In this document: positions 4,092-12,125 of the stretch, in pieces
Numbering within the stretch: the stretch's first letter is position 1
Layout of the letters: every line of letters starts with the position of its first letter
Assembly (NCBI GenBank): GCA_963789495.1
Contig: CAWBLP010000031.1
Location: 118,679 to 182,678, forward strand
Direction of reading: 5' to 3'
From: an uncultured Alphaproteobacteria bacterium
GTDB lineage: Bacteria > Pseudomonadota > Alphaproteobacteria > Acetobacterales > Acetobacteraceae
DNA: 64,000 bases
The notes under the pieces: generated by a model
Told to the model about the DNA's origin: nothing
What the model saw: the letters and a program-made list of their open reading frames with translations, nothing else
Databases searched by the model: none
Program-made: the position numbers and the translations under genes

Positions 4092-4799
4092 ATGAGCGAG
4101 GATATCGCCGCCCTGCTGGATGCCGGCCGCCCGGTCCCGCCGGACCTGGCTGACGCCGTCACCGAACTGCATCTGGCGCGCAGCCGGATCACCGATCTGC
4201 GCGAGCTGCGCAGCCTGACCAATCTGCGACGTCTGGTGCTGAGCCACACGCTGGTCACCGATCTGATGCCGCTCGCCGGCCTGACCGGTTTACGCCGGCT
4301 GGAACTGACCCGCTCCCGCATCCAGGATGTGGCACCGCTGGCGTCGCTGAGCCGGCTGGAAAGCCTGCACGCCTGGTACACGGCAGTCGGCGACCTGCGC
4401 CCGCTCGCCGGGCTTGTCGCATTGGTGGGCCTGTTCCTGACTGGAACATTGGTCGAGACGGTTGCGCCCCTGATACGCCTGACATCGCTGGAGCGGCTGG
4501 ACCTCGGCAGCACGGCGATACGCGATATAACGCCGCTGGCCGGCCTGCATCGCCTGCGCAGCCTGGATCTGTCCGGCACGGCGATCAGCGACCTGACACC
4601 ACTGGCCGGGCTGACGGGGTTGCAATATCTCGACCTGACCGGCACGCCGGTGTGCGATCTGGCGCCCTTGGCGGGACTGACCGATCTGCGCCGGCTGGAC
4701 CTGCGCAGTACCCGCGATCCTGATCCTGCCGCGCTGTTTCATCTGGCGCGCTGCCAGATCATCACGGTTGCGCAGCCACCGCGACGGCGACGCGGCTGA
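4092..4799 (+). CDS. Leucine-rich repeat protein (about 8.5 internalin-type 22-aa repeats), no signal peptide seen
   Basis: 235 aa. Repeating LxxLxLxxTxIxDLxPLAGLxx units, e.g. LRSLDLSGTAISDLTPLAGLTG and LQYLDLTGTPVCDLAPLAGLTD. The N-terminus MSEDIAALLDAGRPV is not hydrophobic. Confidence 0.85.
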   Translation: MSEDIAALLDAGRPVPPDLADAVTELHLARSRITDLRELRSLTNLRRLVLSHTLVTDLMPLAGLTGLRRLELTRSRIQDVAPLASLSRLESLHAWYTAVGDLRPLAGLVALVGLFLTGTLVETVAPLIRLTSLERLDLGSTAIRDITPLAGLHRLRSLDLSGTAISDLTPLAGLTGLQYLDLTGTPVCDLAPLAGLTDLRRLDLRSTRDPDPAALFHLARCQIITVAQPPRRRRG

Positions 4800-4924
4800 A
4801 CGCCGCGGCGTTCACCATTTCCTTGCAATTGCCTGGGTAAACCGGCCTGCCACTTCGCGGGGACGGCGCCTGCCGGTGGTGCGGCAAGGCGACGTGCCTC
4901 CGCAACAAGGCGCCGATCCAACGG

Positions 4925-11100: not shown

Positions 11101-12125
11101 TCATCCAGGCGGCAGGCGGTGACTATCTGACCTTGCCGGAGCTGCGCAGCCAGGAGGATCTGTCGGTCGCGCGCCACCTGCTGCTGCGCCATACCGCGCT
11201 GGGGTCCTGGTGCGAAACACGGGGCATCGCGCTCGGCCGCGACCTGCACATGACGGACGATGCCGCTCATTTCGTGCCGATCGGCCGGCTGTTGCGGGTC
11301 GGCGAATCCGCCGCCGATCCGGCGCTGGCGCAACACCTGCACGACCGGGGTTTTCTGCTGCTGCATGAAGGCAAGACCTTTCATCAGTTCACCGACCGCT
11401 GGGACACGCTGCCGCGCTACGCCGTGCCGCGGGAGCGGCTGCACACCAAGCCCGCCACGCGCGACGCCGCACGCCATTATCGCCTGGTGTTCCGCGACGT
11501 GGCGGGGTCGTCCAATGAACGCACGTTGATCGCTGCCATTGCGATACCGGACGTGGTGTTCGGCCATACCGCGAACACCGAGCGTGCCCCCGCGCTGCGA
11601 CCCAACGGGTCCGCGCTGCTGCTGTGCGCGCTGCTGAACAGCTTTCCGATGGATTGGATGGTGCGACAGAAGGCAGCCGCCCATCTCAGCCTGTTCATCG
11701 TGCAGGGGCTGACCGTACCCGTTCTGTCGATGACTGCGCAGCGACTCCTCGCCCATGGTGCGTTGCGGTTGAGCAGCCGGCATGGCGGCTACGCTGACCT
11801 GTGGCGCGAGCAACTCGGTGATGCCTGGCGGGAGCCGGACCGAGCGCCGCATTGCTGGCCGGCGGTGGTCGATCCGGCCCGCCGCTGGCACCTGCAGGCC
11901 GCCATGGACGCCGTCATCGCTCATGCATTCGGACTGCCGCGCGCCGCCTATCAGCATGTGTTGGGCAGCTTCACGCACCGCACCTTTCCCGCCGCCGCTG
12001 CCCTTTGCCTGGCCGCTTTCGACAACCTCGCGGCAGAGGGGGCGGCGGCGTTCGTCCGCGCGCATGATCCATACTGGGATATCGCGATCCCAGAACAAAC
12101 CCGCCCGGCAGTCCACGCAGCGTAG
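8109..12125 (+). CDS. Large gamma-class N6-adenine DNA methyltransferase, PglX / DrmMI / type IIG-like
   Basis: 1338 aa. AYYTPHAFVRFLV; motif I VDPATGSGHFLVEA; motif IV LGNPPWD. VYRLLFILKLES and LDVEDLGRIYEALL blocks are typical of the PglX/Eco57I-like family. C-terminal TRD-like region contains SSNERTLIAA. Start lies 47 nt after the helicase stop. Confidence 0.9.
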   Translation: MNFELSDCSFSGPALPEPFVQFELATVLAKHGLLHEHVVQNCWSTLRRSLATLGASAGRLRVNNHVLQPLLQSLGYAPAERQPPMQTREGVEDGGWLARTPDNAQLRLWSVDSDIDLDVPHRTGRAYRFSPTRCAQRVLLAASEHVGLLTNGEQLRLLLCDAARPDSHIAIRLTAWRGQRPPPDSLRLLLAIVAPTGLAALPEILDAARLSQVRITKDLRVQARAAIEGFLQSVLDHPGNRAALPSHAQADKVVALWQESLVLVYRLLFILKLESATDTTRAFSFASTRLWRHALSPNQALGPLVRRHLDQGQDTGRMLEDGLRCLFRAFRDGLSCSELRITPLGGALFGSATTPHLDALQWGERGVALLLDRLLWTKPPNRARERVHYGSLDVEDLGRIYEALLDLEPGLAEVPMVRLRRARLDVVLPKADAAPVQARSEAGGGTRTVWMQDIAPGRFFLRAGLGRKATGAYYTPHAFVRFLVQQSLAPQIAQRSPDDDPNPNAILTLKIVDPATGSGHFLVEACRFLGEALYVACRLCDDQATAAEAAAARTEGEKRTTLQARAVTLRDRLAALPDGDGSLAAYLPSHACEGGAIGPSQQRGLAICRRLVAVHCLYGVDCNALAVELAKLSLWLESYAEGLPLTFLDHRLLVGDSLAGAFFAQLETLPISGKSLSSTVSFGIAERLHAVVVRARREVRVLDASVGRDTADLIVKQAAKTRLDALLAPLRNLARAWSGAVLSGAANADAAWFALARQVARTGVWPNALTDVQATLLRTGSTALPWDLTFPEVFAPDRAGSSGFNAVLGNPPWDVLQYSTRDFVAAFDPTVLDAPTKQERSAVEHRVLADPVRAAQFAAYKSDMDARKRLMLRLFRHHKIALGNSLTAGNLDAFRLFSERKLQLVSQDGAIGMVVPSAFHANEGTTGLRQLYLQQTRLDYCLSFENRRKLFDIDSRFKFALIVARRPGPTQSLRCAFYLDSFEQTNDPSRLLTYDRAFIQAAGGDYLTLPELRSQEDLSVARHLLLRHTALGSWCETRGIALGRDLHMTDDAAHFVPIGRLLRVGESAADPALAQHLHDRGFLLLHEGKTFHQFTDRWDTLPRYAVPRERLHTKPATRDAARHYRLVFRDVAGSSNERTLIAAIAIPDVVFGHTANTERAPALRPNGSALLLCALLNSFPMDWMVRQKAAAHLSLFIVQGLTVPVLSMTAQRLLAHGALRLSSRHGGYADLWREQLGDAWREPDRAPHCWPAVVDPARRWHLQAAMDAVIAHAFGLPRAAYQHVLGSFTHRTFPAAAALCLAAFDNLAAEGAAAFVRAHDPYWDIAIPEQTRPAVHAA

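Follow-up and report, generated by a model that had tools for sequence, protein, structure and literature searches.

We analyzed a 64,000-nucleotide stretch (hereafter "the window") of contig CAWBLP010000031.1 from an uncultured member of the Acetobacteraceae, in which a gene for a Swi2/Snf2-type helicase is directly followed, on the same strand, by a gene for a large adenine-specific DNA methyltransferase (hereafter "methylase"). Both proteins are homologous to the first two components, ArmA and ArmB, of the recently described ARMADA system, and this strictly paired, intact, and selected gene couple lies among housekeeping genes, with no trace within the 64 kb of ArmC, the YprA-family helicase that defines ARMADA. 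Our preferred reading, held with moderate confidence, is that the pair represents the ArmA–ArmB modification half of ARMADA type I, kept without restriction. Judged from sequence, the ArmC-less state is common to a whole Acetobacteraceae-centred clade and is not a peculiarity of this genome. A first-pass annotation of the window had grouped the pair with an upstream gene for a leucine-rich repeat (LRR) protein, and proposed an undescribed minimal defence or epigenetic trio. The three-gene form of this proposal is unsupported, and both the components and their parent system were already known, from 2025 preprints; what did emerge is a conserved, effector-less, two-gene form, which may be epigenetic or a minimal defence.

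ARMADA, as published, combines a BrxHII/RapA-like SNF2 helicase (ArmA) and a PglX-like methylase (ArmB) with ArmC, a helicase of the YprA family that is nearest to Druantia DruE; type II adds ArmD, and in cyanobacteria and archaea the helicase–methylase pair precedes ArmC (Bell et al. 2025, PMC12458937). The earlier view that the helicase and methylase fit no known system is thus outdated. As a reference, we used the validated armABCD operon of E. coli EDL933 (z5899–z5902, taken from NZ_CP008957). The window helicase, a DrmD/BrxHII/RapA-like Swi2/Snf2 ATPase, aligned with E. coli ArmA at 29% identity over 660 amino acids (aa; E 3e-55), and three segments of the methylase aligned with E. coli ArmB (E 2e-22). 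Similarity was higher to the corresponding proteins of locus L066 from Lyngbya PCC 8106, with 42% (helicase) and 45% (methylase) identity, both over the full length. RapA was the top PDB sequence match of the helicase (2e-36), a structure model of its aa 641–1045 (predicted local distance difference test score, pLDDT, of 80) matched only the C-terminal part of RapA (probability 0.94–0.98, E ~1e-3), and a duplicated RGLEWDV element near its start may reflect the pair of Tudor-like sub-domains at the RapA N-terminus; the helicase resembles RapA over its whole length. The methylase is predicted to be a DrmMI-like, gamma-class N6-adenine DNA methyltransferase with a type IIG-like layout, in which an N-terminal alpha/beta domain and helical linker (aa 1–460) precede the methylase core, followed by a C-terminal region (aa ~890–1210) resembling the target-recognition parts of type IIG/IIS enzymes. 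Pfam agreed with the first-pass identification of all three proteins (LRR, SNF2 helicase, and Eco57I-type methylase), the SNF2 motifs it had reported as intact were all located, and the order of the methylase motifs, with DPATGSGHF before NPPW, is that of the gamma class.

To place the pair in context, the methylase family was collected, and 80 species-representative loci were fetched from 226 positive genomes. In 79 of these 80 loci, a full-length helicase homologue immediately precedes the methylase; the single exception is a 3.7-kb contig without room for a helicase. The stop codon of the helicase and the start codon of the methylase overlapped in 59 of 69 loci (median distance of −4 nucleotides, nt), a sequence-level hallmark of obligate pairing with translational coupling. 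Walker A, DEAH, and motif VI were kept in all helicases (70/70). Clustering of all flanking open reading frames (ORFs) yielded no other universal gene around the pair besides the helicase and methylase themselves. Extra genes were observed between helicase and methylase in three loci (L048:5972-9630, L065:7630-9927, and L057:9121-9996), where they break the otherwise near-universal stop/start overlap.

In 18 loci, the pair is followed, on the same strand and within a few kb, by a gene for a 1,780–2,050-aa YprA-family helicase. These loci derive from cyanobacteria, Planctomycetes, Verrucomicrobia, Myxococcota, Acidobacteria, Azospirillum, and Steroidobacteraceae. A DrmA/DrmB fusion, as would be expected for class 1 DISARM, was considered for this giant helicase and rejected, as the PADLOC DruE model matched the protein of the distant loci at ~1e-115 vs ~1e-14 for DrmA. 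The giant helicase of the 18 loci also matches both E. coli ArmC and DruE, and the intervening gene of L048 matches E. coli ArmD over its full length. The architecture of these 18 loci is that of ARMADA, and the contig holding L066 (AAVU01000016.1) is an ARMADA type I helicase entry in the supplementary table of Bell et al. (2025).

Next, we searched for ArmC with tblastn, using five ArmC-like proteins, E. coli ArmC, and DruE as queries. Apart from the 18 positive loci, these seven queries detected no YprA-like sequence in the 64-kb window, in nine close-relative loci, or in the remaining loci, so that more than 60 loci have no YprA-like helicase within 10 kb on either side. Among the components of ARMADA type I, ArmA and an adjacent ArmB are therefore present in the window, while a YprA-family helicase with DUF1998 in the same operon was not found by tblastn. 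Other large ORFs near ArmC-less pairs were metabolic, envelope-related, or spurious high-GC frames. In a tree of concatenated helicase and methylase sequences, the ArmC-less loci, including the window, formed one Acetobacteraceae-centred clade, sister to an ArmC-bearing clade spanning many phyla. We considered whether an ArmC-type or other effector could be encoded elsewhere in the genome and act in trans. The contig is at least 225 kb long, of which the window covers 64 kb, and the published list names ARMADA type I helicases in some assemblies of Acetobacteraceae and Rhodopila; these differ, however, from the assemblies fetched here. Such a split system nonetheless appears improbable, given that ArmC lies on the same strand and within a few kb in all 18 complete relatives, that the searched neighborhoods hold no YprA-like sequence, and that the ArmC-less loci form a single clade, for which one loss is the simplest history.

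Several observations concern the ArmC-bearing relatives themselves. Two members of their clade, L050 and L057, have no ArmC within the fetched sequence, and L057 encodes, after the methylase and in ArmC's place, a protein of 1,207 aa that weakly matches PDC-M43B. In ARMADA type I relatives, the armB–armC gap is a variable cargo slot for unrelated known defence modules (L044, L048, L049, L052, L059, and L077; e.g., L052:12112-13736 and L049:12796-16323). Cargo includes AbiEi/AbiEii, a TIR-AAA protein with a PD-T4-6 kinase, GmrSD, an AAA_21/DUF4276 pair, a Schlafen AlbA_2 protein, and a GajB-like UvrD helicase with a ParE/RelE toxin domain. New defence genes might be sought in this slot, one candidate being a 316-aa protein without family match (L069:14485-15435). 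The surrounding defence islands also encode a PDC-S37/Hhe-like protein of 1,449 aa, a TmtA-like protein of 1,373 aa, an Old/GajA-like ATPase, and a pAgo/SIR2-related protein (L050:2122-6471, minus strand; L069:2586-6707, plus strand; and L050:14667-19095).

Loss of an effector could leave behind a decaying remnant without current function, as the effector is indeed gone and, in E. coli, the remaining genes cannot defend without it. This reading receives almost no weight from us and is refuted at the level of sequence evolution. The 3.1- and 4.0-kb ORFs are intact in nearly all ArmC-less loci, all catalytic motifs are retained, and the stop/start overlap is maintained. Ratios of non-synonymous to synonymous substitution rates (dN/dS) ranged from 0.12 to 0.29 for both genes across nine ArmC-less pairs and were similar in the one ArmC-bearing pair tested. 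Both genes of the ArmC-less clade are thus under purifying selection, in line with the first-pass impression that helicase and methylase look functional. Genomic context differs between the two clades: ArmC-less loci lie among housekeeping genes, ArmC-bearing relatives in defence islands with embedded cargo. Within ArmC-less sub-clades, no alternative third gene was found, recurrent neighbors being metabolic or housekeeping genes or spurious high-GC ORFs. These included a short-chain dehydrogenase and an enoyl-CoA hydratase flanking the pair in ~20 loci, a DegP-type protease and a cupin protein in ~13, and an ABC ATPase. The constancy of such neighbors within sub-clades argues for long chromosomal residence; in the window's own sub-clade, the flanks differ in each genome.

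An effector-less pair could also be a self-sufficient minimal defence, which would recognize foreign DNA by its lack of methylation and, without ArmC, block or damage it, either through ATP-driven translocation that stalls replication or through unrecognized catalysis in the methylase N-terminal domain. We regard this as rather unlikely, although several lines of evidence are compatible with it. In Serratia, class 1 DISARM still protects against T1 and M13 after deletion of drmABC, and protection is fully lost only when drmMII is also removed. Both genes are selected and strictly coupled in the ArmC-less clade, and the G+C content at third codon positions (GC3) of the pair (0.76–0.78) is lower than that of neighbors such as the gamma-glutamyltranspeptidase gene (0.89). 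The methylase N-terminal domain is conserved, with E92, E144, and D166 as acidic positions, and structurally it comes closest to a nuclease-bearing enzyme. This match, to the type IIG enzyme BpuSI, was non-significant (E 0.02), none reached 1e-3, and scattered PD-(D/E)xK proteins followed at E >0.5 only, which leaves the type IIG-like N-terminal architecture noted in the first-pass annotation plausible. The conserved polar residues (T87, R88, E92, R107, R128, R137, E144, R156, D166, and S167) include no canonical PD-(D/E)xK triad, and no conserved lysine occupies the (D/E)xK position. These residues are equally conserved in ArmC-bearing relatives, and the ArmC-less clade has therefore gained nothing new. 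Likewise, the structure-model search of the helicase C-terminus returned the RapA C-terminal fold and no nuclease fold. Neither sequence nor predicted structure thus points to an active nuclease at the C-terminus of the helicase or the N-terminus of the methylase. Two further points speak against a minimal defence: two independent E. coli studies found all four genes essential for ARMADA II, and the ArmC-less pairs sit in housekeeping surroundings, as opposed to the islands of ArmC-bearing loci with their AbiE, TIR, GmrSD, kinase, and Gabija-like cargo.

Under our preferred reading of a modification half kept without restriction, ArmB would methylate adenines of the host chromosome in a short, probably asymmetric motif, by analogy with the related DrmMI, which makes N6-methyladenine at the asymmetric motif ACACAG. 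ArmA would use ATP to translocate along or remodel DNA, helping ArmB to reach or recognize its sites, and no DNA would be cut, since the effector is absent. The mark might serve gene regulation, or might shield host DNA from ARMADA- or DISARM-type systems reading the same mark. Several considerations weigh against this reading. Purifying selection on a 1,043-aa ATPase would be unexpected if methylation were the only function, because solitary methylases mostly act without a partner. The N-terminal domain of the methylase is conserved and shows weak similarity to the nuclease domain of a type IIG enzyme, and ARMADA II defence in E. coli depends on all four genes. For this genome the effector search covered the 64-kb window, for relatives 10 kb to either side, and the tree is a single neighbor-joining tree, midpoint-rooted and without bootstrap support. 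A broader interpretation, which we advance only tentatively, is that ArmA–ArmB is an autonomous unit that predates or outlives the YprA effector, and that in Acetobacteraceae it provides either domesticated, helicase-dependent methylation or a form of DNA exclusion free of nuclease and YprA helicase.

Comparison with known systems further delimits the pair. Like ARMADA type I, the window has a RapA/BrxHII-like Swi2/Snf2 ATPase followed, in the same order, by a large PglX/DrmMI-like adenine methylase; it differs in that ArmC is missing from the window and from the searched loci of the whole clade, and in its housekeeping context. The NPPW and Walker motifs that are essential in E. coli ARMADA type II are conserved in the window's proteins, and in E. 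coli, mutation of the equivalent ArmB residue, N971, abolished defence (PMC12458937). E. coli ARMADA type II is however distant, with an ArmB of 1,644 aa compared to 1,338 aa here, and needs all four genes for defence, of which ArmC and ArmD are lacking in the window. In class 1 DISARM, the pair precedes the core genes in equal order, and, as the first-pass annotation had anticipated, the top PADLOC models were DrmD (7e-108) and DrmMI (6.6e-87), with DrmD also leading among NCBIfam models. These PADLOC matches cover parts of the proteins only, the NCBIfam DISARM_DrmD model scored 377 bits vs a cutoff of 610 and was restricted to the ATPase core, and no NCBIfam DrmMI match was obtained. None of the DISARM core genes drmA, drmB (DUF1998), and drmC (PLD) was found in the window, and the partner helicase of the relatives is DruE/ArmC-like, not DrmA-like.

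BREX systems likewise combine a large adenine methylase (PglX) with a Swi2/Snf2-type helicase (BrxHII), and BrxHII models matched the helicase at 1e-69. The window differs in lacking BrxA/B/C, PglZ, and BrxL, and the methylase scored only 26 bits against the BREX_1 PglX model (cutoff of 500), with a PADLOC PglX match at E ~4e-4. The absence of DrmA/B/C and BREX partners beside the pair thus agrees with the first-pass annotation. With type IIG/IIL enzymes (BpuSI, MmeI, DrdV, and BsaXI), the methylase shares an alpha/beta N-terminal domain, a helical linker, a gamma-class core, and a C-terminal recognition region, and it matched PADLOC REase_MTase_IIG models at up to 2.7e-48. It differs in that neither a canonical PD-(D/E)xK triad nor a significant structural nuclease match was found, although its N-terminal domain may still have nuclease activity, and in its obligate, separate Swi2/Snf2 partner. 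Type ISP (LlaGI-like) enzymes combine an Mrr-like nuclease, a helicase-like ATPase, a methylase, and a recognition domain in a single polypeptide; here the ATPase and methylase are separate proteins, and a nuclease domain was detected in neither.

We then evaluated whether the LRR protein could be a sensor or specificity subunit of a true three-gene system restricted to a narrow sub-clade. This is highly improbable and, as far as gene order can tell, largely refuted. An LRR gene was present in none of the 80 species-representative methylase loci, and the five closest relatives of the window gave a mixed picture. In the L082/L083 lineage, an LRR gene with 65% identity lies directly upstream of the helicase, with a downstream flank that differs from that of the window, and in a third lineage (L081) a copy with 68% identity lies 2.9 kb upstream, which are the two observations in favor of a trio. 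In L081, however, genes for an MFS transporter and a luciferase-like monooxygenase separate the LRR gene from the helicase, and the gene is absent beside the pair in the two other lineages (P0004 and P0005). Synteny of the three genes, the check named beforehand as decisive for the trio, thus did not hold across the family; the 65%-identical LRR gene of L082, placed as in the window, contradicts the stricter statement that LRR and pair are never syntenic.

Outside the family, two LRR homologues (L090 and L091; 56% and 45% identity) share 11 nt with the 3' end of tauD in a housekeeping neighborhood of ATP synthase genes, ribosomal protein L25, pth, and ychF, with neither helicase nor methylase within 10 kb. 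The window keeps this order, tauD then LRR. Because its homologues follow tauD where no pair is near, as in the window, the LRR gene is, on this synteny, a bystander that belongs with tauD and adjoins the pair merely in a narrow group of genomes. Consistent with this, the LRR gene is separated from the helicase by 125 nt, whereas true partners typically overlap, and a terminator-like hairpin begins at its stop codon. This hairpin may separate a tauD–LRR unit from the helicase–methylase unit, but is only suggestive, as the six terminator-like sites in the region are not above the shuffled expectation of 4.8 ± 2.1. Adjacency by itself was, for the LRR gene, a poor guide to system membership. The tauD-family dioxygenase gene and the gene for a small LRR-only protein are a conserved gene pair in Acetobacteraceae (window 3203-4799; L090:9175-10870; L091:9175-10660). 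The LRR-only protein has no obvious signal peptide, and its coupling to a TauD/TfdA-type oxygenase is an unusual pairing without obvious explanation.

The features of the locus are listed in the table below. ORF coordinates agree with the first-pass annotation on the three same-strand genes, on the gap of 46 nt between helicase and methylase as well as that upstream of the helicase, and on the flanking tauD and ggt genes.

Features of the helicase–methylase locus and its immediate flanks (positions in the window; aa, amino acid positions in the protein)
Feature	Position	Strand	Remarks
TauD	3203-4039		Upstream flank of LRR gene
LRR gene	4092-4799	+	235 aa; Pfam LRR_4, E 4.8e-42
Terminator-like hairpin with T-rich tail	4797-4814	+	Begins at LRR stop codon
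ArmA-like helicase ORF	4925-8062	+	1045 aa as called; likely start ATG at 4931 (4931-8062), because the database copy has 1043 aa
Duplicated RGLEWDV element	4964-4984 and 5048-5068	+	Helicase N-terminus, 28 residues apart
Walker A GLGKT	aa 127-131; 5303-5317	+	Helicase
DEAH	aa 231-234; 5615-5626	+	Helicase
Motif VI QRNGRIDRYGQ	aa 595-605; 6707-6739	+	Helicase
ArmB-like methylase	8109-12125	+	1338 aa; Eco57I-type by Pfam
Methylase N-terminal domain and helical linker	8109-9488	+	AlphaFold2 model, mean pLDDT 87.6
Motif I DPATGSGHF, S-adenosylmethionine-binding site	aa 513-521; 9645-9671	+	Residues invariant in alignment A1
Motif IV NPPW, catalytic motif	aa 810-813; 10536-10547	+	In 78/78 family members
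Gamma-glutamyltranspeptidase (GGT)	Probable start 12205, end 13932		Downstream flank of methylase

Elsewhere, the window consists of core chromosome (DnaB, HisRS, alanine racemase, and AFG1). No defence-family proteins were found elsewhere in the 64 kb, and no DrmA/B/C, BREX, PglZ, or nuclease genes near the three genes. We found no convincing direct or inverted repeats flanking the module as insertion scars, and no tRNA or integrase gene near it. Among unrelated features, a 611-aa ORF (15181-17016) fuses an inositol-monophosphatase-family domain (aa 11–240) to an ADP-ribosylglycohydrolase domain (aa 293–567). AT skew is strongly positive (0.18–0.27) at 18000-20500, and a long ORF without Pfam match (17805-20111, minus strand) is overlapped by a high-GC3 ORF (18932-20389, minus strand). 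Unlike the remaining window, ~5 kb at ~56000-60900 hold no ORF of ≥150 aa with GC3 >0.75, and could be an insertion sequence (IS)-rich or non-coding region; two DDE (IS4/IS5-type) transposases are present somewhere in the window.

What the SNF2 helicase and the large methylase do in class 1 DISARM and ARMADA is poorly understood, and the two proteins have always been studied alongside a dominant YprA effector. The survey of Bell et al. (2025) was anchored on the YprA helicase, and surveys of this design miss the ArmC-less branch; neither that article nor other literature we found mentions a clade-wide, selected two-gene form without ArmC. A clade that keeps only the coupled and selected pair represents a natural separation-of-function experiment, and its retention without an effector implies that the pair is useful by itself. 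It also offers a minimal system for asking whether the helicase serves methylation or site recognition. If ArmA–ArmB is an autonomous unit, the front half of ARMADA- and DISARM-type systems would have an activity of its own, and the pair would provide a simple two-protein model for the role of the SNF2 partner. If the pair has been domesticated for methylation, these Acetobacteraceae would possess a bacterial Swi2/Snf2 remodeller dedicated to writing an epigenetic mark.

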